A DNA stretch of 64,000 nucleotides from Escherichia coli (GTDB lineage: Bacteria; Pseudomonadota; Gammaproteobacteria; Enterobacterales; Enterobacteriaceae), in assembly GCF_024298765.1 (NCBI RefSeq), contig NZ_CP101210.1. The stretch is one strand, 5' to 3'. Shown piece by piece: positions 8,880 to 54,752 of the stretch. The notes beneath the pieces were generated by a model, which was given only the letters and a program-made list of their open reading frames with translations, was not told the origin of the DNA and searched no databases. The number at the start of each line of letters is the position of its first letter. Positions within the stretch are counted from its first letter, which is position 1. A program made the translations under genes and the position numbers.

Positions 8880-10160
8880 CTACTGCTTCGCCTCAGCAAA
8901 ACACTGGCTGATGATTTCCAGACCCTGACGGATCTGAGCGTCTTCAATGGTGAGCGGTACAAGGATGCGCAGCACGTTGTAATACGGGCCGCAGGAGAGA
9001 AGAATCAGGCCTTTATCGCGGGCACGCGCCACGATCTCGGCGGTGAGTTTGGCGTCCGGTTTGCTGTGATCGCCATCTTCAAACAGCTCGATGGCAATCA
9101 TCGCTCCCAGCCCGCGTACATCGCCGATCTCCGGGTGTTTTTCGGCTATCGCCAGCAATCCGTCTTTCAGCTTATGCCCCAGGTCGTTGGCTTTTTGCAG
9201 CAGATTTTCCTGCTCGAATACCTTTAACACTTCCAGCGCTGCCACGCAGGCAATCGGGTTACCGGCATAGGTGCCGCCCAGACCGCCTGGAGCGACGGCA
9301 TCCATCACTTCCGCGCGCCCGGTGACGCCCGCCAGCGGGAAGCCGCCCGCGATCGATTTCGCAAAGGTGGTAAGATCCGGCGCAACGTCCATCTGCTCCA
9401 TCGCAAACAGCGTGCCGGTACGCCCCGCGCCGCTCTGCACTTCATCGGCAATCAGCATGATCCCGTGCTCGTCACACAGCGCGCGTAAACGCTGCATAAA
9501 GGCTGGCGTCGCGGCGTAGAAACCGCCTTCGCCCTGAACCGGCTCAATCACGATGGCGGCGATATCTTCCGGCGCGGCGTCATTTTTGAAGATCCGGTGG
9601 ATGCTGGCGATAGCGTCATCCTCGCTTATGCCGTGCAGCGGGCAAGGATAAAGCGCGCGATAAACATGACCCGGCATCAGCCCCATGCCCGCAGAGTACG
9701 GATTCACCTTGCCGGTCAGCGCCAGCGTGTAATGCGTGCGCCCGTGATACGCACCGCTAAAGGCGATAGTACCGCTACGTTTAGTGGCGGCGCGGGCGAT
9801 TTTCACCGCGTTTTCCACCGCTTCGGAACCGGTCGTAACCAGCAGCGTTTTTTTGGCGAAATCTCCCGGCACCTTCTGATTCATAATCTCGCACAGCTCC
9901 AGATACGGTTCGTAAGCCAGCACCTGGAAGCAGGTGTGCGACAGCTTTTTCAACTGCGCTTCCACCGCCGCAACCACTTTCGGATGCAGGTGCCCGGTAT
10001 TGAGCACCGCAATGCCGCCCGCGAAATCAAGATACTCACGACCTTCAACGTCCCACACCCGGCAGTTTTCCGCGCGGTCAGCGAAAATGGGGTGAATTTG
10101 CCCAACGCCACGAGGAACTGCCTGACTACGGCGCTGCATTAACTCTTTATTGCTGCTCAT
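8880..10160 (-). CDS. gabT: 4-aminobutyrate aminotransferase GabT (PLP-dependent)
   Basis: 426-aa ORF MSSNKELMQRRSQAVPRGVGQIHPIFADRAENCRVWDVEGREYLDFAGGIAVLNTGH... Confidence 0.9.
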   Translation of the reverse strand: MSSNKELMQRRSQAVPRGVGQIHPIFADRAENCRVWDVEGREYLDFAGGIAVLNTGHLHPKVVAAVEAQLKKLSHTCFQVLAYEPYLELCEIMNQKVPGDFAKKTLLVTTGSEAVENAVKIARAATKRSGTIAFSGAYHGRTHYTLALTGKVNPYSAGMGLMPGHVYRALYPCPLHGISEDDAIASIHRIFKNDAAPEDIAAIVIEPVQGEGGFYAATPAFMQRLRALCDEHGIMLIADEVQSGAGRTGTLFAMEQMDVAPDLTTFAKSIAGGFPLAGVTGRAEVMDAVAPGGLGGTYAGNPIACVAALEVLKVFEQENLLQKANDLGHKLKDGLLAIAEKHPEIGDVRGLGAMIAIELFEDGDHSKPDAKLTAEIVARARDKGLILLSCGPYYNVLRILVPLTIEDAQIRQGLEIISQCFAEAKQ

Positions 10161-10173
10161 TCGCGTTCTCCAG

Positions 10174-11622
10174 TTAAAGACCGATGCACATATATTTGAT
10201 TTCTAAGTAATCTTCGATGCCATACTTCGAACCTTCACGACCCAGACCCGAGGCTTTAATGCCGCCGAACGGGGCCACTTCATTGGAAATAATGCCAGTA
10301 TTAATGCCGACGATGCCGTACTCCAGCGCCTCGCCCACGCGGAAGACGCGGCTTAAATCACGGGCGTAGAAATAGGCGGCAAGGCCAAACTCGGTGTCAT
10401 TGGCCTGCGCAATCACATCGGCTTCATCTTTAAAGCGGAATAGCGGGGCAAGGGGGCCGAACGTCTCTTCTTTCGACACTTTGGCGTTGGCCGGAACGTC
10501 CACCAGAATGGTCGGCTGGAAGAAGTTGCCGCCGCGTTCATCCGCTTTACCGCCGCAAACCACACGCGCACCTTTCTCCAGCGCATCGGCAATATGCTCT
10601 TCCACTTTTGCTACCGCTTTTTCATCAATCAGCGGCCCAATGGTGACGCCATTCTCCAGCCCGTCGCCGATGTGCAGTTTGCTCACCGCCTGCTGCAATT
10701 TTTCGGCAAAGCGGTCATACACGCCGTCCTGCACGTATAAACGGTTGGCGCAGACGCAGGTTTGCCCGGCGTTGCGGAATTTCGAGGCCAGTGCGCCTTC
10801 CACGGCTTTGTCGAGGTCGGCATCGTCAAAGACGATAAACGGCGCGTTGCCGCCCAGTTCCAGCGACACTTTCTTGATGTCTTTCGCGCACTGTTCCATT
10901 AACTGGCGGCCAATTTCGGTCGAGCCGGTAAACGACAGTTTGCGCACCAGCGGGTTGCTGGTCAGTTCGTTACCGACCGCGCCCGCCGAACCGGTGACCA
11001 CGTTAAATACGCCAGCCGGAACGCCTGCGCGAATCGCCAGTTCCGCCAGCGCCAGCGCAGAGAACGGCGTCTGACTGGCAGGTTTCAGCACCATCGTGCA
11101 GCCTGCCGCCAGCGCCGGACCGGCTTTACGGGTAATCATCGCCGCCGGAAAGTTCCACGGCGTGATAGCAGCAGTGACGCCAATCGGCTGCTTGATAACA
11201 ATCAGGCGTTTATCGGCCTGATGACCGGGAATGGTGTCGCCATAAATACGTTTGCCTTCTTCAGCAAACCACTCAATAAAGGAGGCCGCGTAGCTGATTT
11301 CGCCTTTCGCTTCAGCCAGCGGTTTACCCTGTTCGAGGGTCATCAGGCGCGCTAAATCGTCCTGATGCTCCATCATCAAATTGAACCAGTTGCGCAGAAT
11401 GGTGGCGCGTTCTTTGGCGGTGAGCGCGCGCCAGGCGGGCAGAGCGCGGTTGGCGGCGTCGATAGCGGCGCGGGTTTCATCAGCGCCCATTTTCGGCACG
11501 CTACCCAGCTTGTCGCCGTTCGCCGGATTGGTGACGTCGATGACCTCGCCATTGTTGGCGTCCAGCCATTCCCCGTTAATCAACGCCTGCTGGCGGAATA
11601 AGTTACTGTCGTTAAGTTTCAT
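10174..11622 (-). CDS. gabD: Succinate-semialdehyde dehydrogenase GabD
   Basis: 482-aa aldehyde dehydrogenase-family ORF MKLNDSNLFRQQALINGEWLDA... Confidence 0.9.
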   Translation of the reverse strand: MKLNDSNLFRQQALINGEWLDANNGEVIDVTNPANGDKLGSVPKMGADETRAAIDAANRALPAWRALTAKERATILRNWFNLMMEHQDDLARLMTLEQGKPLAEAKGEISYAASFIEWFAEEGKRIYGDTIPGHQADKRLIVIKQPIGVTAAITPWNFPAAMITRKAGPALAAGCTMVLKPASQTPFSALALAELAIRAGVPAGVFNVVTGSAGAVGNELTSNPLVRKLSFTGSTEIGRQLMEQCAKDIKKVSLELGGNAPFIVFDDADLDKAVEGALASKFRNAGQTCVCANRLYVQDGVYDRFAEKLQQAVSKLHIGDGLENGVTIGPLIDEKAVAKVEEHIADALEKGARVVCGGKADERGGNFFQPTILVDVPANAKVSKEETFGPLAPLFRFKDEADVIAQANDTEFGLAAYFYARDLSRVFRVGEALEYGIVGINTGIISNEVAPFGGIKASGLGREGSKYGIEDYLEIKYMCIGL

Positions 11623-11644
11623 TGTTACGTCCTGTTTTCAAAGG

Positions 11645-12913
11645 TTATTGATTAAATGCGGCGTGTAAGGCATCCACACTACGTGCCGCTCGCAGCGTGC
11701 GTCCGGGGTTACTCTGGCTTGCCAACAGCGTTTGTACCTTGCTGACAATATGCGCACCAATAGGAATTGCTGATGTCGCTGCCGGGGAGGGCGCATTGCA
11801 GGTGTGGATCGTGCGCGGGGTGGTGACAAACAGAAAATCGTCAATCAGCTTGCCGTCCGGCGATACCGCCTGCGCCCGCACACCAGCGGGCCAGGGCTGG
11901 AGATCGCTTAACGAAAGCCGGGGACAATACTTTTGCACCAGCCGCAGATAGCCGCTTTTGCACAGCGAGTTTTTCATCTCGCCCAGTCCTGAGCGTAGAT
12001 GGTTTTGCAGCACCCGGCGAATCCCCGACGAGCCCAAAATCTCCAGCGTGTCGCTAAATGAGAAGTCGCGCTTACGATAGCCTTCGCGTTTGAAAGCCAG
12101 CACCGCGTTTGGCCCGACGGTCACGCTGCCATCGATCATGCGGGTGAGATGCACGCCCAAAAATGGCATCGCGGGGTCGGGAATGGGGTAAATCAGGTGG
12201 TTAACAATCTGGTTATGCTCCGGCGCAAGGCGGAAATACTCGCCACGGAACGGGCAGATAATAAAGCCCGGTTCGAGGCCGAGCATTTTCACCAGCCGGT
12301 CAGCCATCAGCCCGGAACAGCTAATCAGCGTCGATGCTTCATATTCACCGCCCTGACGGGTACGTATCACCACGCCGTTTTTATGCTCACTGAGGGCGCT
12401 GACTTCGGCGTTATAAATAATCTCGCCGCCTCTGGCCTGGAAGATTTTTGCCATCGCCGCCGTCACTTCGCGATAGCTGACAATGCCGCTGGACGGCACA
12501 AAAATGCCGCCGAGCCCGGTGATATTCGGTTCGCGCTCGCGCAGTTCCTCGGCGTTTAGCCACTCGCGCTCGATACCATTCGCCGCCGTACGTTCCCACA
12601 ACGCGCGCATCCGTTCCATTTCGAGTTCAGAGGTGGCGACCAGCATCTTGCCGCAGTTGTCATAGCGAATGCCGTTTTGATCGCAAAAGGCTTTGGTGGC
12701 GCGGTTCCCCGCCAGGCAAAACTGCGCCTTCAGGCTACCGGGCGTGTAATAAACCCCGGCATGGATCACGCCGCTGTTGTGGCCTGTCTGATGACAGGCC
12801 GGACCGGACTCTTTTTCCAGCAACGCAATGCGGGCATCCGGATAAACATCAATCAGTTGCATGGCGGTCGACATGCCGATGATGCCGCCGCCAATAATCA
12901 CAAAATCATACAT
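11645..12913 (-). CDS. lhgO: L-2-hydroxyglutarate oxidase/dehydrogenase LhgO (YgaF)
   Basis: FAD-binding GxGxxG near the N-terminus (MYDFVIIGGGIIGMSTAM); track ORF extends upstream to 12979. Confidence 0.85.
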   Translation of the reverse strand: MYDFVIIGGGIIGMSTAMQLIDVYPDARIALLEKESGPACHQTGHNSGVIHAGVYYTPGSLKAQFCLAGNRATKAFCDQNGIRYDNCGKMLVATSELEMERMRALWERTAANGIEREWLNAEELREREPNITGLGGIFVPSSGIVSYREVTAAMAKIFQARGGEIIYNAEVSALSEHKNGVVIRTRQGGEYEASTLISCSGLMADRLVKMLGLEPGFIICPFRGEYFRLAPEHNQIVNHLIYPIPDPAMPFLGVHLTRMIDGSVTVGPNAVLAFKREGYRKRDFSFSDTLEILGSSGIRRVLQNHLRSGLGEMKNSLCKSGYLRLVQKYCPRLSLSDLQPWPAGVRAQAVSPDGKLIDDFLFVTTPRTIHTCNAPSPAATSAIPIGAHIVSKVQTLLASQSNPGRTLRAARSVDALHAAFNQ

Positions 12914-12932
12914 CCGCTCAATTCCTTTGCGC

Positions 12933-14009
<1,077 letters not shown>

Positions 14010-14440: not shown

Positions 14441-14624
14441 AAAAAAGCCCGCATCAGCGGGCTTTAATGTCATAGGGAGTCGCGACTCCGTTGCGTATCC
14501 TTTTTTGTCTCCTCACCGTCTGGTCGGTGTCCTGCTGAGACTTATAACTTCCTGTTTTTGTTGGTGTAGTCCTTACACCGTCCAATCATGATTGGTGGAG
14601 CTGGCGGGAGTTGAACCCGTGTCC
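14441..14624. repeat. Left att-associated direct repeat: displaced copy of the ssrA 3' end (~33 nt) plus ~150 bp of ssrA-downstream sequence
   Basis: ~90% identical by eye to 54238-54423; homology to ssrA stops at 14624, after which AT-rich prophage sequence begins. Confidence 0.7.
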
Positions 14625-15050: not shown

Positions 15051-15866
15051 ATGTTGCAGCCAGCAAAAAAAGCATCAGTTATTAGCGCGCGGCTAACGAA
15101 ATACCTCAAAGATGGAGTGAGGATTGATGACTTTAGCTTTAGAAGGATGTTACGTGAGATTGAAGCACTTAGAGATCCTGTCTCTGAGGACTATCTTTTA
15201 GCGTTGGTCTATGGTGCACATGGCCAAGTGAATGAGGCGATAGGCTTCTTTGAGCGTTCCTTGCAGGTATGCCATAATGAGGTTGTTGCAAAGAATTTTC
15301 TTGTTTTCTTGTCAGATTACGGTACGTTGAAGAAAAGCTTTGAAACAAGCATTAAGCTTGCTGAAAGCTTCATATCCCCGTTTATTTATCTTCAAGCTTA
15401 TGAAAACTCCCTCTTTATGGGGAAGATGGCGTTGGCGGAGAAGTATTTCCAGTCATACTCTAAATTGTTCGGAGATAAGGAGCCTGAAAAAATGGACAAC
15501 AATCTTGATGAAGTTGTTTCCCAGGTCGAATCCTTTAAGCAACGTGCCGATCTTTCTGGTTTAGAATATGAACTTATTTTCAATAATGTAGCCAATGTCA
15601 TGGATTCTCAGAAGGTTCATCTTTCGGGAATGCGTTTTTATAATATTTCGGAAGAGAAAGTGAATGCGATTGTATTCATGACAAAGTCTTCTGATGCTGA
15701 ACAAATCGCTGATATGAATATTGAGCTTGCTTTTTCAATGGCTGAGCACGATTGTTTAGTCGGTAAAGATTTTGCTGTTTGGTTTGAATGTAAAGACACA
15801 CATATTGAGCAGAATGCTATCTCCGAATTAGGTCTGATTACCCGGAGGGTTGCACATGCCGGTTAA
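15051..15866 (+). CDS. Hypothetical protein (271 aa), first gene of a two-gene cargo operon beside attL/int; function unknown
   Basis: Clean ORF, soluble and helical-looking, no motif I recognise; AT-rich by eye; AT-rich upstream leader. Confidence 0.55.
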   Translation: MLQPAKKASVISARLTKYLKDGVRIDDFSFRRMLREIEALRDPVSEDYLLALVYGAHGQVNEAIGFFERSLQVCHNEVVAKNFLVFLSDYGTLKKSFETSIKLAESFISPFIYLQAYENSLFMGKMALAEKYFQSYSKLFGDKEPEKMDNNLDEVVSQVESFKQRADLSGLEYELIFNNVANVMDSQKVHLSGMRFYNISEEKVNAIVFMTKSSDAEQIADMNIELAFSMAEHDCLVGKDFAVWFECKDTHIEQNAISELGLITRRVAHAG

Positions 15867-16239
15867 TAGTCAAGATTTTCTCGGTTTTGCAAAAGACTGT
15901 CATCAACGTAATGACGAAATCGGCTATCGAAATGCTATAGCAAGATCCTACTATGGCGCTTACCATCATGTCTTGCCTTGTATGGTAAACGGGCCGAAAG
16001 ACAGTCATCAGGGGCTAATCAATTATTTGCAGGGCGATGCTTCAAGAGGAAGTGAAGTATATGAAGCTAGATATCTAAAAGGGATTAGTTTTATCCTGAG
16101 TCAACTTAAAGCTCAGAGGATTGTTGCAGACTATCGACTTGATCAATCGGTCACTTCTAAACAGTCTGAAGTTGCGATTCTAACAACTGAGAGGCTCTTT
16201 GCTAAGTGTACGGAAATGCTTAAATCGAGAGCCTCCTAA
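15850..16239 (+). CDS. Hypothetical protein (129 aa), overlaps upstream gene by 17 nt; contains an R-x6-H dyad (RSYYGAYHH)
   Basis: Overlapping start implies translational coupling; followed by a terminator hairpin at 16246-16270. Confidence 0.5.
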   Translation: MHMPVNSQDFLGFAKDCHQRNDEIGYRNAIARSYYGAYHHVLPCMVNGPKDSHQGLINYLQGDASRGSEVYEARYLKGISFILSQLKAQRIVADYRLDQSVTSKQSEVAILTTERLFAKCTEMLKSRAS

Positions 16240-16245
16240 TTGATA

Positions 16246-16270
16246 AAGCCACTTAAGTGGCTTTTTTTGT
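16246..16270. terminator. Hairpin plus T-run between the convergent cargo operon and int
   Basis: aaagccacttaagtggcttttttt. Confidence 0.6.
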
Positions 16271-17425
16271 GATATTGCTGGTCGTATTACCGTCATATTC
16301 CTTTAAATATAAACCATAATGACGAAATAACATTTCCGGCCCTTTATGCCCCATTTGAGCTGCAAGCCAAAACAGGTTTGCTCCCCGGCTGATATGGCGG
16401 GTGGCGAATGTATGCCTAGTTTGATATGGATTTCTGTAACGAATACCTGCTTTTCGCAATGTTGGCACCCATGCTTTTTTCCTGATTGCATCAGCACTTG
16501 CCCAAGGCTTATTGGTCTTTGGATCTTCAAAGACAGTAGTATCCTTCATGAATGTAAATGGCTTCTGATTTATCAGCGCCAACATTGCCTCTTCTGTCAG
16601 TTCAACTTTCCGAGTACCTGCTTTTGTCTTTGTCCCTTTGATAACACCGACAACACTTGCGCTCTGGACATGGGCAGTTTTTCCAACAAAGTCGATATCA
16701 CGCCATCGAAGGGCACATAATTCAGAACTACGCAGGCCTGTATGTATAGCGAACCGGAACAGATTTTCCCATTGTTTGTTTCCGGCTGCTGCTAGTAATG
16801 CATCAACTTCTGCTGGTGATAGCGGATCAACTACGTAGCTGCTTTCTGCTTCTGACTTATCACTTTGGTAGCGCGAAGCTGTTACTAACGATACGGGGTT
16901 AATTTGAAGTACCCCATCGGTCACGGCTTCATCAAGTGCTGACCGCAGGAAAGATAACTGGTTGCGAATTGTTTTTAAGGTCGTTTTCTGATTTTGAATC
17001 CACGCTTTCAGGGTTGCTGGTGTTAATTCACTTGCAGGGCAAATGTGAAGTGAGGCTAACGCACTACGGCATTTTTTATAGCCACCAATCGTAGAGGGTG
17101 AAAGTTTTCTTGTTTCGCAGATTTCAAGATATTCGTCCAGGTACATCTTTACCGTTTTGCCTGCAGCAGCATTACCAAAAATTTTCAAACGAGCAGAACG
17201 GGGAAAATATTCTGCATAAATGAATGTTCCCCTTTCGATCTTATTATGGATTTCGCCGAGTGTACGCTCGGCGTATTTAATGTTCTTTGGTGTTACTTCC
17301 AGATTGGAAAGCGGCTCACGACATCTAACTCCTTTGTAGGTGAAAGTTATATTGATCGTTTCTCCCTGGCGGTGTTTCCTGATTGTTACGCCGCGCGGTA
17401 GTTTGAGCAGTTTTGTCTGGCCCAT
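16253..17425 (-). CDS. int: Phage integrase, tyrosine recombinase family
   Basis: 390-aa ORF with C-terminal catalytic region (...HTGLRSSELCALRWRDID...RHTFATRHISRGANLFWLAAQMGH...); adjacent to xis and the att region. Confidence 0.85.
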   Translation of the reverse strand: MGQTKLLKLPRGVTIRKHRQGETINITFTYKGVRCREPLSNLEVTPKNIKYAERTLGEIHNKIERGTFIYAEYFPRSARLKIFGNAAAGKTVKMYLDEYLEICETRKLSPSTIGGYKKCRSALASLHICPASELTPATLKAWIQNQKTTLKTIRNQLSFLRSALDEAVTDGVLQINPVSLVTASRYQSDKSEAESSYVVDPLSPAEVDALLAAAGNKQWENLFRFAIHTGLRSSELCALRWRDIDFVGKTAHVQSASVVGVIKGTKTKAGTRKVELTEEAMLALINQKPFTFMKDTTVFEDPKTNKPWASADAIRKKAWVPTLRKAGIRYRNPYQTRHTFATRHISRGANLFWLAAQMGHKGPEMLFRHYGLYLKEYDGNTTSNITKKAT

Positions 17426-17633: not shown

Positions 17634-18524
17634 TTAACGAATAGTGTCGTTACTTTGAAGTACAGCAAATGCCATTAATACTTCTAAAGTATATCTTCTA
17701 TAAAATTTAACAAAACCAACATAGAAAACATAGACGAAGAAAAAGCTAAGCATTATTGAAAGTAAACTATAAAGATAATCACTATGAGTACATAATCGAT
17801 AAATAAAGGTTGGAACTGATACCCAAAATGAAATTATAAAGATTAAACATATGTTTCTGCAAAAACCATATAATGCAACATAGTTTTGAATTTTTGTTTG
17901 ATGTTGTTTTGAAAACTCATAAACATAATGATATGCCAATCTGAAGAGATCATCATCAAGTCCGTTTTTATCTTGTAATAATTGGCGATTTGTTATGAAC
18001 TTTTTCTCATAACCTTCTTTGATCATTAACCATGTTGTATTAGCTAAATGAAATGGTAGAGATTGAGAATAACATAGTTTTTGTGTTATAAAATCCCATA
18101 GTATTATTGGGCATAATACGCATTTGATTATGCGATTCTTTATTTTTGTTTTTTTATCAGCGCTTCTCTCATCGCATGATGGGCTACAAATGCTTTCTGA
18201 GGTATCTATCAATTTTTTAAATAGATATTTGGAAGGATATCCTAATTCTTTATTCATGTATTTTTCGATAAAAAATGCTGACGTGATAGAAATAAAATGT
18301 CCAGCTATATAAGATATAATAACTATTGAAGCGTAGTTCAAAATGCCAAAGATTTGACTTTGACCTCTGAGCAATTCACTTAAGTCAATAACAATATCTA
18401 GATCGAATGTCAAACCACAGAAATACATTAATAGGATAAAAAAACCACCTGGTATTAAATATCCAAGAAAGTCATAGAATGAGAATGGATTTTGATTCAT
18501 TGTTGCTCTCCAATAATTTTTCAA
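17634..18524 (-). CDS. Hypothetical integral membrane protein (296 aa; ~2 N-terminal and ~2 C-terminal TM helices around a soluble core)
   Basis: Strikingly AT-rich by eye compared with neighbours; hydrophobic stretches FFILLMYFCGLTF, IVIISYIAGHFISITSAFFI, ICLIFIISFWVSVPTFIY, LLSIMLSFFFVYVFYVGFV. Confidence 0.55.
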   Translation of the reverse strand: MKNYWRATMNQNPFSFYDFLGYLIPGGFFILLMYFCGLTFDLDIVIDLSELLRGQSQIFGILNYASIVIISYIAGHFISITSAFFIEKYMNKELGYPSKYLFKKLIDTSESICSPSCDERSADKKTKIKNRIIKCVLCPIILWDFITQKLCYSQSLPFHLANTTWLMIKEGYEKKFITNRQLLQDKNGLDDDLFRLAYHYVYEFSKQHQTKIQNYVALYGFCRNICLIFIISFWVSVPTFIYRLCTHSDYLYSLLSIMLSFFFVYVFYVGFVKFYRRYTLEVLMAFAVLQSNDTIR

Positions 18525-23869: not shown

Positions 23870-23962
23870 ATGAGTCTTTTGAATGAAGTTCAGAAATTCA
23901 TTGAAGCCCATCCGGGGTGTACTTCCGGAGACATTGCGGATGCTTTTTACGTGGGGGCTTAA
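23870..23962 (+). CDS. Possible small coupled ORF (30 aa) between the replication gene and the methylase
   Basis: ATG overlaps the upstream stop; TAATG overlap with the methylase start; found by hand. Confidence 0.3.
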   Translation: MSLLNEVQKFIEAHPGCTSGDIADAFYVGA

Positions 23963-24615
23963 TGAGTAATAAATATTGTCAGGCGCTGGTGGAGCTGCGG
24001 AACAAACCATCCCATGAACTGAAGGAGGTGGGCGATCAGTGGCGCACGCCGGACAGCATTTTCTGGGGAATTAACACCTTGTTTGGCCCGTTTGTTCTGG
24101 ATCTGTTCACTGACGGTGATAACGCCAAATGTGCCGCGTATTACACGGCGGAAGACAACGCGCTGGCGCATGACTGGTCAGAACGCCTTGCGGAGCTTAA
24201 AGGTGCTGCCTTTGGCAATCCCCCATACAGTCGCGCCAGTCAGCATGAGGGGCAATACATCACCGGCATGCGTTACATCATGAAACATGCCAGTGCCATG
24301 CGTGATAAGGGCGGGCGCTATGTTTTCCTGATCAAAGCTGCCACCAGCGAAGTGTGGTGGCCGGAAGATGCGGACCATATTGCTTTTATTCGCGGGCGTA
24401 TTGGTTTTGAACTGCCTGCCTGGTTTATCCCGAAAGATGAGAAGCAGGTGCCGATAGGCGCTTTCTTCGCTGGTGCTATTGCTGTTTTTGACAAGACCTG
24501 GAAGGGACCGGCAATCAGCTACATCGGGCGCGATGAACTTGAGGCATGTGGTGAGGCCTTTCTGGCGCAGGTTCGCCAGCAGGCAGAAAAACTGGTCAGG
24601 GAGATGGTGGCATGA
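23962..24615 (+). CDS. Phage-type DNA N6-adenine methyltransferase (Dam-like, orphan)
   Basis: Start at MSNKYCQALVEL (track ORF starts at 23917); contains the FGNPPY motif, a D/N-PP-Y/F-type catalytic signature. Confidence 0.7.
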   Translation: MSNKYCQALVELRNKPSHELKEVGDQWRTPDSIFWGINTLFGPFVLDLFTDGDNAKCAAYYTAEDNALAHDWSERLAELKGAAFGNPPYSRASQHEGQYITGMRYIMKHASAMRDKGGRYVFLIKAATSEVWWPEDADHIAFIRGRIGFELPAWFIPKDEKQVPIGAFFAGAIAVFDKTWKGPAISYIGRDELEACGEAFLAQVRQQAEKLVREMVA

Positions 24616-51478: not shown

Positions 51479-52912
51479 ATGTCTGAATTTGAAGTGTTGG
51501 CACAGCATCTGCTGAAGGAAGCCGAGGCGGAAGAAAAGCTGCGACAGGAAAATGATAAAAAGCTTATCGAGAAAGTGCTGGAAATCTATGATCAGAAGTA
51601 TGTGGCTGAATTACTGAGAAAAGTCGGAAAAAATGAGTGGAGCCGTGAAACCATTAACCGCTGGATTAATGGCAAGTGTTTACCAAAATCGTTGACTTCA
51701 GTAGAAGAGTCTCTTCTGCGTAAGATGCTACCAGAACCACCTGCAAACCATCCGGAATATGCTTTCCGCTTCATTGACTTATTTGCTGGAATTGGAGGGA
51801 TACGGAAAGGTTTTGAGGCCATTGGAGGCCAGTGTGTTTTTACCAGTGAATGGAATAAAGATGCTGTGCGTACATACAAGGCCAACTGGTTTAACGATGA
51901 ACAGGTGCATAAATTCAATCTCGATATTCGGGAAGTCACGCTGAGTGATAAAACCGATGTATTGGAAACGGATGCTTATGCATATATTGATGAGCATGTG
52001 CCGGATCATGATGTGCTTCTTGCGGGGTTCCCGTGCCAGCCATTTAGCCTTGCTGGTGTTAGTAAGAAAAACTCACTTGGTCGTGCGCATGGTTTTGAAT
52101 GTGAAGCACAAGGAACACTTTTTTTTGACGTGGCACGTATTATACGAGCAAAAAAACCGGCAATTTTTGTGCTGGAAAATGTCAAAAATCTGAAGAGCCA
52201 TGATAAGGGTAAAACTTTCAAAGTCATTATGGAGACCCTTGACGAGCTGGGCTACGAAGTTGCCGATGCTGCAGAAATGGGAAAAAACGATCCAAAGATT
52301 ATCGATGGGAAGCATTTTTTGCCTCAGCATCGTGAACGCATTGTTCTGGTCGGATTTAGACGAGATCTGAATATTCACAAGGGGTTTACCTTGCGTGATA
52401 TCAGTCGTTTTTATCCGGAACACCGCCCATCATTTGGTGAATTGCTGGAGCCTGTAGTCGACAGTAAATATATACTTACGCCAAAACTATGGGAGTACCT
52501 TTATAACTACGCCAAAAAGCATGCAGCCAAGGGGAATGGTTTTGGCTTTGGGTTGGTCAATCCTGAGAATAAGGAAAGCATTGCACGCACACTTTCTGCC
52601 AGATATCACAAAGACGGATCAGAAATTCTTATTGATCGTGGTTGGGATATGGCAACGGGAGAGGCTGACTTTATGAATGAGAGTAATCAGGCTCGTCGAC
52701 CACGCAGGCTGACTCCCCGAGAGTGCGCACGCCTTATGGGATTTGAAAAACCTGGAGGGAAACCATTCCGTATTCCGGTTTCAGATACTCAGTCATATCG
52801 GCAGTTCGGTAACTCAGTTGTGGTGCCAGTATTTGAAGCTGTTGCCAGACTTCTGGAACCCTATATCCTCAAAGCTGTTTCTGCTGATGCTGGTAAGACT
52901 GGGCAGCCTTGA
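51479..52912 (+). CDS. DNA cytosine-5 methyltransferase, Dcm/M.EcoRII family (predicted CCWGG)
   Basis: [12 protein letters not shown] (motif I), [10 protein letters not shown] (PCQ, motif IV), ENV (motif VI), QFGNSV (motif X); collinear with recalled Dcm; alternative start at 51437. Confidence 0.85.
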
Positions 52913-52946
52913 GAACATCTCCCGGCCTTTTAAGCCGGGAGTCAGC

Positions 52947-54161
52947 CTATGATAGTTCAGCGTAAAGCTCTATCAGCTCAGTAATGAATGCTCCGAGCGT
53001 TATTAATTCTTCTCTAACTGCTTCTGGGTATTTTTTATGTAAAGTTGATGGTACAACGAGTCTGACACCCGCATCTTTCATTTCTCGGTATTGTGCTGAA
53101 GAAACACCTTCTTGCAGTGTAAATAAATGTACCTGATGGATTTTATCTGCTTCATTCAGTATCTGACGCCAGCGATCTTTGCAGGTGGTCTTTACTGCCA
53201 GCATACGTAAGTTTTCTACAGGAAATTCAACGTTATGATATGCCTCTGCTGAAGGAAACAGGAAATCTGGTTTTTTATTACCTTCAGTAACTGCCTGAGT
53301 GGAGAAATGCCGTAGTCCGTGCTCGATAAAAAGCTTCTCTAGGTGAAGTTCAAGTGATTTGCCTGCCCTTGATTTACGTCGATTACTGACAGAGTTGGCT
53401 AATGCAATAAACTCATCTACAGAATCGAATCCTTTCTTAATAATATCAAGAACATGTAATTCCTCGACGAGTAGAAAAATATCATACTCGACACGCCGAC
53501 GGTCAATCAGTTGCTCATCTGGATCCTTGGAGTTTTTAGCATAATGGCCAGCAGCATATTGAATAATTTCGTTTCCAGAAGGAAAACGCTTCTTCCAGTC
53601 TTCAGGAATAACATATTTATGATTTACTGGAGTTTGCTGAAGAGACAATCCGCCCAAAATTTGTCCGGCAGGGCCGGAAATTAGGGTTCCAGGTATGATT
53701 TCGCCAATAGCAGACTCGATGATATCCTCTTCATCGGGATTGACGCAGACCCATATATCTACCTCGGAACAGTCAGTGTTCTGTTCGTTTAACCTGAAAG
53801 CAAGAATTGTGAGGGCTCCTGTATTTTCAGGGTTCTGTAATGGACTTCCTCTCCCCCAGCGCGTAATTCTTTTTTCGTTTCGGGTCTTACCAAAATAACG
53901 GTTGTTGTAATAAATTGCGCGTGCTTGGGTATCAGGGCAATCATGGGATGATACATGCGCAGTAAGGAAGACTGAAGGGTTCAGTTCGCGAGTATGATTG
54001 ATAGATGGAAAAAGCTTTTCAACGATATTTGAGGGGATATAAAGTCCGACCTGATGGCCACCTGTTGCGCCTGTGTCGTTTGCAGAAAGGCGTTTGATGT
54101 AGATAAAGTAATTCCCGCTTGCGATATCAAGCAGCCAGTTATGAAAAACCGACATATACAT
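52947..54161 (-). CDS. Type IIE restriction endonuclease, EcoRII family
   Basis: 404-aa ORF (MY)MSVFHNWLLDIASGNYFIYIKRLSANDTGATGGHQVGLYIP..., matching my recollection of EcoRII; convergent with the methyltransferase. Confidence 0.75.
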   Translation of the reverse strand: MYMSVFHNWLLDIASGNYFIYIKRLSANDTGATGGHQVGLYIPSNIVEKLFPSINHTRELNPSVFLTAHVSSHDCPDTQARAIYYNNRYFGKTRNEKRITRWGRGSPLQNPENTGALTILAFRLNEQNTDCSEVDIWVCVNPDEEDIIESAIGEIIPGTLISGPAGQILGGLSLQQTPVNHKYVIPEDWKKRFPSGNEIIQYAAGHYAKNSKDPDEQLIDRRRVEYDIFLLVEELHVLDIIKKGFDSVDEFIALANSVSNRRKSRAGKSLELHLEKLFIEHGLRHFSTQAVTEGNKKPDFLFPSAEAYHNVEFPVENLRMLAVKTTCKDRWRQILNEADKIHQVHLFTLQEGVSSAQYREMKDAGVRLVVPSTLHKKYPEAVREELITLGAFITELIELYAELS

Positions 54162-54237
54162 CCCTTTGTTAACATACAGTCAGGGTTAACATTTTTCCAT
54201 AGTTATAGATAAGCGGCTAGGAACTTAAGGGAAAAAC

Positions 54238-54423
54238 AAAAAGCCCGCATAAGCGGGCTTTTGTGTCACTCGAGAGCCGCGGCTCCTTTGCGTATCCTTT
54301 TTTATCTCCTCACCGTCTGGTCGGTGTCCTGCTGAGACTGCTAACTTCCTGTTTTTGTTGGTGTTGTCCTTACACCGTCCAATCATGATTGGTGGAGCTG
54401 GCGGGAGTTGAACCCGCGTCCGA
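54238..54423. repeat. Right att-associated direct repeat (ssrA 3' end plus phage-borne downstream arm with terminator)
   Basis: ~90% identical by eye to 14441-14624; hairpin plus T-run (read on the minus strand) at 54238-54262. Confidence 0.7.
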
Positions 54424-54752
54424 AATTCCTACATCCTCGGTACTACATGCTTAGTCAGTCTTTACATTCGCTTGCCAGCTGCGGACGGACACGCCACTAA
54501 CAAACTAGCCTGATTAAGTTTTAACGCTTCAACCCCAGGCAGGGCTTCCACGCGATCTCTTTTGGGTTTGACCTCTCTTGATCCCCGTCCTAAGAGCGGA
54601 GGCTAGGGAGAGAGGGCTCTAAGCAGGTTATTAAGCTGCTAAAGCGTAGTTTTCGTCGTTTGCGACTATTTTTTGCGGCTTTTTACGAGGCCAACCGCCC
54701 CTCGGCATGCACCTTGGGTTTCGCAAATCCCGTCGAATCCAGAATCAGCCCC
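54390..54752 (-). ncRNA. ssrA: tmRNA (SsrA)
   Basis: Reverse complement matches the recalled E. coli tmRNA from GGGGCTGATTCTGGATTCGACGGG... to ...GGTTCAACTCCCGCCAGCTCCACCA. Confidence 0.95.

Follow-up and report, generated by a model that had tools for sequence, protein, structure and literature searches.

An EcoRII-type restriction-modification cassette as cargo of an ssrA-integrated prophage of Escherichia coli

A 39.6-kb prophage integrated at ssrA, in the 64-kb stretch of Escherichia coli DNA analysed here (the window), carries a methyltransferase gene and a restriction endonuclease gene of the EcoRII lineage, which quite probably form a functional Type IIE cassette, transported as cargo of a temperate coliphage and serving the lysogen as a barrier against DNA unmethylated at CCWGG. 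The cassette is placed between the gene of a nuclease known as CMoRE or PD-T4-3 and the attR site, and its setting is defined by the following features:

14477..14624, attL, displaced copy of the ssrA 3' end and downstream sequence
16253..17425, minus strand, prophage tyrosine integrase (phrog_1 integrase, E=2.7e-63), at the prophage end opposite the cassette
50299..51072, minus strand, CMoRE/PD-T4-3, GIY-YIG type IV endonuclease (PADLOC PDLC04031, E=4.7e-140)
51287..54225, restriction-modification cassette, insertion/replacement unit of about 2.9 kb, breakpoints from the alignment with the KSC1031 prophage
54239-54262, ssrA terminator hairpin
54274..54421, attR, 148-nt repeat comprising the last 32 nt of ssrA and 116 nt downstream
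54390..54752, minus strand, ssrA (tmRNA), integration target (ARAGORN; Rfam RF00023, 295.8 bits)

The original prediction of a complete, undisrupted Type IIE pair inside the prophage, next to attR and ssrA, was borne out, since both open reading frames are full length and lie within the 148-nt direct repeats of attL and attR, which are 95% identical and could also be aligned to the attP of a circular relative. The prophage includes integrase, repressor, terminase, capsid and sheath genes, and ssrA lies just upstream of the endonuclease gene and is co-directional with it. In the related prophage of KSC1031, the slot between CMoRE and attR is occupied by ImmA/HTH/BRO-N cargo instead of the cassette, and the matches to O157:H7 prophages stop short of the cassette. 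Moreover, the module was seen in more than one phage backbone: a 43.7-kb circular phage-like relative has it adjacent to attP, dinI and int, and another ssrA prophage, with a lambda-type tail, also contains it. The GC content of the cassette is 42.9%, against 50% in the remainder of the prophage. The cassette is thus accessory cargo of the prophage: it is inside the att repeats, travels with the phage genome, is replaceable and has an atypical GC content. The interval between attL and int is a second variable slot, in which PADLOC and NCBIfam returned nothing for the two open reading frames present. As regards the neighbouring CMoRE/PD-T4-3, it matches PDB 9U75 with E=2.4e-171, its gene adjoins the methyltransferase gene in 241 genomes, and the enzyme is specific for DNA containing 5hmC and glucosyl-5hmC (PMC12923530).

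The methyltransferase side of the cassette consists of two features:

51396..51478, plus strand, region 5' of the methyltransferase gene, presumed promoter/operator, conserved with plasmid EcoRII
51479..52912, plus strand, C5-cytosine DNA methyltransferase of the M.EcoRII type, 477 aa, intact

The collinearity with Dcm and M.EcoRII proposed at the outset was confirmed, the protein being 69% identical to E. coli Dcm and 91% identical to plasmid M.EcoRII, the latter over 474 aa without gaps. In addition, the match to NCBIfam NF007772 reached 927 bits (cut-off 710), the translation contains the C5-methyltransferase motifs FAGIGG, PCQ, ENV, QHRER and GNSV, and the region from motif VIII to motif IX is near-identical to that of M.EcoRII. 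From the 91% identity and this near-identical region, the inner cytosine of CCWGG is the predicted target. An N-terminal extension of about 97 aa also aligns ungapped to M.EcoRII, in which it is the autorepressor domain, and M.EcoRII has been reported to repress its own gene once its sites are methylated, Dcm methylation included (review PMC12707154). A longer open reading frame of 491 aa, starting at 51437, was considered and rejected in favour of the 477-aa start, because the ATG at 51479 is preceded, at a distance of 5 nt, by a GGAGG Shine-Dalgarno sequence and the homologues are 477 aa long; 477 aa is also the PGAP call for identical copies. Upstream of the gene, the homology with pACN001-A begins at about 51396, which means that some 83 nt are conserved, and megablast matches to plasmids begin at query position 97-98.

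The endonuclease side, on the opposite strand, comprises:

52947..54161, minus strand, Type IIE restriction endonuclease of the R.EcoRII type, 404 aa from the first ATG and 402 aa from the ATG at 54155, intact
54162..54225, minus strand, region 5' of the endonuclease gene, within the cassette, with a TATAAC box at 54207-54202

That this convergent 404-aa gene encodes an EcoRII-type endonuclease, as originally proposed, is upheld by a full-length, ungapped match to PDB 1NA6 (EcoRII; E=3e-243), by an ungapped identity of 87% to plasmid R.EcoRII and by the presence of both Pfam domains at full length, EcoRII-N at residues 18-165 (E=5.5e-61) and EcoRII-C at residues 229-393 (E=4e-71). The order of the domains, an N-terminal effector DNA-binding domain (B3-like pseudobarrel) followed by a C-terminal catalytic domain, is that of EcoRII-type Type IIE enzymes; NCBIfam had no model matching either this endonuclease or CMoRE. 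Conservation was checked against the list of catalytic and CCWGG-contact residues published for EcoRII (PMC2770665), and all 28 of the 28 are kept. These include the four residues of the PD-(D/E)XK active site (E271, D299, K324 and E337), the residues recognizing CC:GG (K328, D329, R330 and N260), the pocket for the flipped base (R222, E225, Y226, F229, R265 and A266), and the base and backbone contacts of the effector domain (N28, H36, Q37, Y41, R81, Y85, K92, T93, R94, E96, R98, T100 and R101). On the strength of these conserved residues, the enzyme is predicted to need a second bound site before it cuts an unmethylated CCWGG, and to be blocked where the inner cytosine carries 5mC. An altered specificity was rejected because all the recognition residues are conserved.

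The start of the endonuclease had been left for confirmation between MYMSVFHN and MSVFHN. The second ATG (54155, MSVFHN, 402 aa) is the more likely start, because the AAGGG/AGGGG Shine-Dalgarno sequence is spaced 6 nt from it but directly adjoins the first ATG, and PGAP also chooses the second; both candidate ATGs (M-Y-M) are kept in the plasmid EcoRII gene, where they read M-F-M. The published numbering of the endonuclease runs over 404 aa. Further upstream, the TATAAC box aligns with a perfect TATAAT of plasmid EcoRII and is a putative promoter element of the endonuclease gene.

The stop codons of the two convergent genes are only 34 bp apart and enclose one further feature:

52919..52941, between the convergent stop codons, inverted repeat CTCCCGGC-N7-GCCGGGAG, hairpin with an 8-bp stem

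This inverted repeat is likely to act as a bidirectional terminator. A terminator scan gave counts not above those of shuffled sequence, the only useful features being this intergenic hairpin and the ssrA terminator, and a scan for sigma-70 consensus promoters gave sites not above shuffled sequence, none of them convincingly placed for either gene. In comparison with plasmid EcoRII, dN/dS values of 0.03 and 0.05 were obtained (0.05 for the endonuclease), with dS saturated at about 1.65; both genes have been under long-term purifying selection relative to plasmid EcoRII, at saturated dS. These data bear on the idea that the cassette is inert or decaying, a passenger without a present role, or that it has a specificity other than CCWGG. 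Although its function is redundant with that of Dcm, two full-length frames that align ungapped to EcoRII, the complete set of 28 functional residues, the methyltransferase region between motifs VIII and IX and dN/dS values of 0.03-0.05 all speak against this idea, which we hold to be highly improbable.

The cassette is not rare. About 260 complete E. coli genomes contain it at an identity of at least 99%, a prevalence of about 5%, or roughly one genome in 20, and 32 IMG/VR viral contigs share a 35-mer exactly with the endonuclease gene. The plasmid-type EcoRII, at about 80% nucleotide identity, is matched by 653 plasmid records. In a collection of cultured phages, megablast matched the att region only, with no restriction-modification matches, and at protein level the matches were limited to Burkholderia phage KL3 and a pair of small metagenomic fragments.

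The question of vsr deserves separate attention. As the original prediction stated, there is no vsr adjacent to the methyltransferase gene; in fact, tblastn with E. coli Vsr detected none across the window (best match E=0.03 over 38 aa), and the methyltransferase stop is followed by the 34-bp gap and the convergent endonuclease gene, unlike the arrangement of the dcm-vsr operon. This absence had been regarded as anomalous, a view that is not supported, since the one plasmid EcoRII locus inspected lacks vsr as well. The proper comparison is therefore with EcoRII, whose plasmid locus shares the convergent layout without vsr, and not with chromosomal dcm-vsr. It had also been proposed that lysogeny would raise the 5mC load without a linked repair gene, which the results do not support either, and the presence of dcm-vsr elsewhere in the host was to be checked. 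A dcm match was found in 5366 of 5426 complete E. coli genomes, and in all 60 inspected carriers of the exact endonuclease a query of endonuclease plus vsr also matches a second place on the same chromosome; place-count arithmetic from the same search suggests that nearly all cassette carriers also possess chromosomal vsr. Judging from the carriers of the identical cassette, dcm-vsr is presumably present in the window's own genome too; the best genome matches to the window cover 97% at 99.3-99.6% identity. With dcm near-universal and vsr in 60 of 60 carriers, CCWGG is therefore already methylated and Vsr already present, and the lack of vsr in the cassette matters little. Lysogeny adds no new methylated sites, since Dcm covers the same CCWGG, and the self-repression reported for M.EcoRII likewise argues against a raised load, although methylation or mutation may still rise slightly in quantity. 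The mutational hazard suggested for the missing vsr does not hold in actual hosts.

As for the proposed function, the methyltransferase would convert the inner cytosine of CCWGG to 5mC, while the endonuclease would engage one unmethylated CCWGG through its N-terminal effector domain, relieving autoinhibition, after which the C-terminal PD-(D/E)XK dimer would cut another CCWGG. EcoRII-type enzymes require two or more sites, and DNA with few sites therefore escapes them. If expressed in the lysogen, the pair would block incoming DNA without CCWGG methylation, and CMoRE/PD-T4-3 would act alongside it on 5hmC and glucosyl-5hmC DNA, so that only 5mC-marked DNA would escape both enzymes. Since nearly all E. 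coli are Dcm+, the barrier would work mainly against DNA that comes from dcm-negative donors or is under-methylated; within such a Dcm+ species, most conspecific DNA bypasses it. In this context, EcoRII was found to restrict conjugating plasmids only when they came from dcm-negative donors (PMC11602122).

The same host background weighs on a different account, in which the cassette would act as a selfish addiction module, stabilizing the prophage mainly through post-segregational killing of the cells that lose it. EcoRII is a documented post-segregational killer, and the cassette is mobile, low in GC and present in more than one phage backbone; nevertheless, the isospecific chromosomal Dcm attenuates the killing that follows EcoRII loss (PMC3874152). 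With dcm and vsr as frequent in E. coli and in the carriers inspected as described above, little of the addiction effect should therefore remain, and killing upon prophage loss is expected to be blunted, which makes this account rather improbable. We give a similarly small chance to a benefit for the phage itself, whereby the methyltransferase would shield phage DNA from EcoRII-type restriction in new or dcm-negative hosts and the endonuclease would act during lytic growth against competing unmethylated DNA. The same model was proposed for phage KL3, which has an EcoRII-C endonuclease, Vsr and a methylase (PMC3091744), plasmid-type EcoRII is as widespread as the 653 plasmid records indicate, and plasmid-borne cytosine methylases protect about 2700-fold against EcoRII (PMC11602122). 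Nevertheless, propagation in Dcm+ E. coli already confers protection on the phage, which confines the extra gain to rare dcm-negative hosts; a role of the methylase alone leaves unexplained the strong purifying selection on the endonuclease, and the cassette is set apart from the lytic operons, beside another defence gene of lysogen type. A barrier operating in the lysogen, with a presumed defensive benefit against CCWGG-unmethylated DNA, is the reading we favour over both.

A more far-reaching version of that barrier can be put forward only tentatively, and we think it unlikely as a whole. According to it, CMoRE/PD-T4-3 and the EcoRII-type pair would constitute a co-selected checkpoint of cytosine modification, cutting unmodified CCWGG and 5hmC or glucosyl-5hmC DNA and letting only 5mC pass. 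Integration brings the endonuclease gene directly downstream of the highly transcribed, co-directional ssrA, whose terminator is supplied by the phage, and read-through of this terminator could give lysogen-specific expression of the endonuclease, with the methyltransferase repressing itself and relying partly on the Dcm of the host. A cassette prevalence of about 5%, together with plasmid EcoRII, could exert a constant selective pressure that keeps dcm near-universal in E. coli.

The EcoRII family is thus not restricted to plasmids, since a diverged, strongly conserved lineage rides on temperate coliphages that integrate at ssrA, usually beside a nuclease for hydroxymethylcytosine DNA, a fact useful for annotation and for catalogues of defence systems. 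The interpretation of methylomes also gains, because in carriers the effect of a dcm knock-out can be hidden by a second CCWGG methylase. Furthermore, the cassette is relevant to the proposal that Dcm is retained as a 'vaccine' against elements of the EcoRII type.

Among known systems, plasmid EcoRII (e.g. pACN001-A; R.EcoRII PDB 1NA6, 3HQF, 3HQG) is the closest, with the same convergent layout and a gap of about 33 bp, the same protein lengths of 477 and 404 aa without indels, about 83 conserved nt upstream of the methyltransferase gene and no vsr in either locus. It differs in its nucleotide sequence (about 80% identity, with saturated synonymous divergence), in its GC content (48-49%, against 42-45% here) and in its location on a plasmid, whereas the present pair resides in a temperate phage at ssrA, beside CMoRE. 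With the E. coli dcm-vsr operon the cassette shares a methyltransferase collinear with Dcm and with the same predicted inner-cytosine CCWGG target; however, dcm overlaps vsr and has no partner endonuclease, while the pair has an endonuclease and no vsr. Genes gp45-gp47 of Burkholderia phage KL3 (EcoRII-C endonuclease, Vsr and C5 methylase; PMC3091744) are likewise an EcoRII-type module of a temperate phage, but similarity to the KL3 endonuclease (39% identity) is confined to residues 171-397 of the present enzyme, its C-terminal part, and the KL3 module consists of three co-directional genes with a vsr of its own, in contrast to the convergent cassette without vsr. Type II pairs moving horizontally as cargo of mobile elements (PMC2853133) are of the same kind, although the enzyme families, specificities, phage types and integration sites differ. 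The slot of the cassette corresponds to the b region of lambda, with the tail-fibre genes on one side and attP on the other, and its alternation with ImmA/HTH/BRO-N cargo fits the concept of prophage defence hotspots, of which it is one instance, no departure having been found. The prophage pair is, in this sense, ordinary phage-carried defence and not a new mechanism.

Both reading frames of the restriction-modification pair were found where the original prediction had placed them, at the right end of a prophage, with the following features around them:

14477-14624 and 54274-54421, att direct repeat of 148 nt, copies 95% identical
16253-17425, integrase
50299-51072, minus strand, PD-T4-3/CMoRE gene, a GIY-YIG gene (PADLOC, E=4.7e-140)
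51479-52912, plus strand, EcoRII-type methyltransferase gene
52919-52941, inverted repeat with an 8-bp stem, between the two stop codons of the pair
52947-54161, minus strand, EcoRII-type endonuclease reading frame, 404 aa from the first ATG
54390-54752, minus strand, ssrA (ARAGORN and Rfam)

The stop codons of the convergent genes are 34 bp apart. The longest version of the methyltransferase reading frame starts at 51437 (491 aa), and the ATG at 51479, with GGAGG upstream at 5-nt spacing, gives a product of 477 aa, which is also the length of the M.EcoRII gene in plasmid pACN001-A and of the PGAP call in identical copies. Over 474 ungapped residues this methyltransferase shares 91% identity with plasmid M.EcoRII, and its identity to E. 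coli Dcm is 69%, bearing out the predicted collinearity with both; it scores 927 bits against NCBIfam NF007772 (cut-off 710), and the target-determining segment between motifs VIII and IX has only a handful of differences from M.EcoRII.

The convergent gene proved to be a relative of the EcoRII endonuclease, as had been proposed, since it matches the crystal-structure sequence 1NA6 without gaps over residues 1-403 (E=3e-243), is 87% identical to the R.EcoRII encoded on pACN001-A, and contains both Pfam domains, EcoRII-N and EcoRII-C, at full length. The functional residues were taken from the work on EcoRII-N/DNA and EcoRII-C/DNA structures (PMC2770665), and comprised the catalytic residues (E271, D299, K324, E337), the CC:GG readers (K328, D329, R330, N260), the flipped-base pocket (R222, E225, Y226, F229, R265, A266) and the effector-domain contacts (N28, H36, Q37, Y41, R81, Y85, K92, T93, R94, E96, R98, T100, R101), with R88, mutated in 1NA6, also included. 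All 28 are conserved and neither protein is gapped against its counterpart; the pair is complete and undisrupted. As regards the endonuclease start, where MYMSVFHN had been set against MSVFHN, both ATGs are conserved (ATG-TAT-ATG here, ATG-TTT-ATG in the plasmid gene), codon 2 being variable (Tyr in the window, Phe in the plasmid, Leu in 1NA6). A purine-rich Shine-Dalgarno sequence, AAGGG in the window gene and AGGGG in that of the plasmid, directly adjoins the first ATG and leaves a gap of 6 nt to the second; this spacing, together with the PGAP annotation, makes the 402-aa MSVFHN form the more likely product. The structural literature numbers the protein by the 404-aa form, and the choice is without effect on function.

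The window and plasmid lineages are about 80% identical in nucleotides, with saturated synonymous sites (dS ~1.65) and dN/dS values of 0.03 (methyltransferase) and 0.05 (endonuclease, low in both domains). Such low values at saturated dS mean that both genes have stayed functional throughout a long period of divergence. CCWGG is the well-supported predicted specificity of the cassette.

The att repeat, made up of the terminal 32 nt of ssrA plus the 116 nt that follow, brackets a 39.6-kb element which also carries genes for a CI-like repressor, terminase, major capsid and tail sheath, as well as Mu-type baseplate and tail genes recognised by similarity to annotated relatives. The pair lies inside these repeats as the final coding unit before attR, confirming it as prophage cargo beside ssrA. 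The phage att region (54239-54421; 14450-14624) mimics some 150-190 nt of the ssrA 3' end, terminator hairpin included; once the phage has integrated, the 3' end and terminator of the functional ssrA are those supplied by the phage, and the bacterial original is displaced to attL. The same cassette is carried by NZ_CP081794.1, a circular record of 43.7 kb filed as an E. coli plasmid which, with terminase, capsid, tail, integrase and attP, is the circular genome of a related temperate phage. Its order is tail fibre, acyltransferase, GIY-YIG gene, methyltransferase, endonuclease, attP, dinI and int; the module thus accompanies the phage genome on excision, in a position equivalent to the lambda b region. 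NZ_CP081704.1 (43.7 kb) and NZ_CP104634.1 (30.5 kb), known here from the cassette match alone, contain it at 99% identity, which suggests that the three records are excised or episomal forms captured by assembly.

The best genome matches to the window reach 97% coverage at 99.3-99.6% identity. A prophage with a siphovirus tail of lambda type likewise has the GIY-YIG and restriction-modification module at ssrA. Among prophages with the same structural genes, that of strain KSC1031 has the slot filled by ImmA/IrrE, HTH, BRO-N and two small reading frames, and in those of O157:H7 the matches stop before the cassette. By alignment, the cassette breakpoints fall close to 51287 and 54225, and the part homologous to plasmid EcoRII begins at 51396 (83 nt ahead of the methyltransferase) and extends slightly beyond the endonuclease start. 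The GC content of the cassette is 42.9%, against 50% in the remainder of the prophage.

The product of the neighbouring gene at 50299-51072 is nearly identical to CMoRE of E. coli O157:H7, for which there is a crystal structure (PDB 9U75, E=2.4e-171). This type IV endonuclease of the GIY-YIG family reportedly breaks down 5hmC and glucosyl-5hmC DNA (PMC12923530) and protects native and heterologous hosts against T-even phages (bioRxiv 10.1101/2024.12.20.629700). The gene directly adjoins the methyltransferase gene in 241 complete E. coli genomes, and several hundred others have it but lack the cassette. Two defence systems thus make up a small islet at the right end of the prophage.

Elsewhere in the element, an orphan phage N6-adenine methyltransferase (~23962-24615, plus strand; TIGR01712, 251 bits, cut-off 97), 98% identical to the copy in NZ_CP081794.1, brings the DNA methyltransferases carried to two. 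A Pin/Gin-type serine invertase (49651-50241, plus strand) follows convergent alternative tail-fibre/assembly genes (47465-48538, plus; 48510-49660, minus). The region 47465-50241 looks like an invertible tail-fibre segment, and the best genome matches are split into two pieces there, consistent with the segment being inverted in those genomes. Two reading frames between attL and the integrase (15051-16239, plus strand; 271 and 129 aa; phrog_17809 and phrog_5176) had no match in PADLOC or NCBIfam; strain UTAK-14 has an RloB-family protein and an ATPase there instead, and the interval has the look of another variable cargo slot, perhaps one for defence genes. An early-region frame (17634-18524, minus strand, 296 aa) gave a weak PADLOC match to Csx27 (E=1.4e-5), possibly noise, and none in NCBIfam. 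In the flank, reading frames at 8880-13910 match UTAK-14 gabT, gabD, lhgO and glaH in length and order and reach attL without another island; the glaH-prophage interval of UTAK-14 has extra material including an IS3 element, a second integrase and sensor/regulator fragments.

A 3.1-kb region with the cassette occurs at at least 99% identity in 258 E. coli records, and the methyltransferase gene, at the same threshold, in 262, roughly 5% of 5426 complete genomes. An exact 35-mer of the endonuclease gene is present in 32 IMG/VR viral contigs. The cassette was not found in any record of the cultured-phage collection, whose only EcoRII-like endonucleases are those of Burkholderia phage KL3, matching the C-terminal part only at 39% identity, and of two small metagenomic fragments.

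As had been noticed, no vsr stands beside the methyltransferase; none was found anywhere in the 64-kb window, and the cassette is not a dcm-vsr operon. The EcoRII locus of pACN001-A has the same convergent two-gene layout, also without vsr, so that the absence fits the plasmid form of the family and is not a loss. The suggested check for dcm-vsr elsewhere in the host was run on complete E. coli genomes. A dcm match was present in 5366 of 5426 of them, and E. coli dcm is followed by an overlapping vsr. A chimeric query joining endonuclease and vsr found a second place on the same chromosome in all 60 top records with an identical endonuclease; in total it hit 5636 places in 5372 records, and the excess of 264 approximates the number of carriers, suggesting vsr in nearly all of them. 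From the genomes with an identical cassette we infer dcm-vsr in the window's own strain. Hosts with dcm and vsr thus have these CCWGG sites methylated, and Vsr at hand, before any lysogeny. M.EcoRII, moreover, reportedly represses its own gene once its sites carry methylation, Dcm methylation included (review PMC12707154). The idea that lysogeny raises the 5mC load without repair is therefore not supported. Slight changes in how many of the sites are methylated, or in C-to-T mutation, are possible.

By homology, the methyltransferase would mark the inner cytosine of CCWGG, and autoinhibition would keep the endonuclease inactive until one unmethylated site is bound by its N-terminal domain; at another site the C-terminal dimer would then flip the central base pair and cut (PMC2770665). 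In a lysogen, the cassette would be a barrier to DNA without CCWGG methylation. EcoRII restricts plasmids from dcm-negative donors and not from Dcm+ E. coli (PMC11602122), and Dcm attenuates killing following EcoRII loss (PMC3874152), results which would limit its reach to under-methylated DNA or DNA from dcm-negative sources; any addiction effect in real hosts should be weak. The strong purifying selection argues that the endonuclease still pays its way. Regulation is the least supported part of the proposed working: a promoter consensus scan was uninformative, with no more hits than in shuffled sequence, a TATAAC box (54207-54202) aligns with a perfect TATAAT of the plasmid copy, and the endonuclease gene is co-directional with ssrA, 78 nt past the phage-supplied terminator (54239-54262), from which read-through is conceivable.

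Literature searches returned no description of this prophage EcoRII lineage or of its pairing with CMoRE, and RefSeq annotates these exact proteins generically. Type II restriction-modification on an E. coli prophage is already known from EcoT38I on P2 (PMC2853133), as is a phage-borne module of EcoRII-C, Vsr and methylase from Burkholderia phage KL3 (PMC3091744). By every sequence criterion tested, the present cassette is a member of the EcoRII family.
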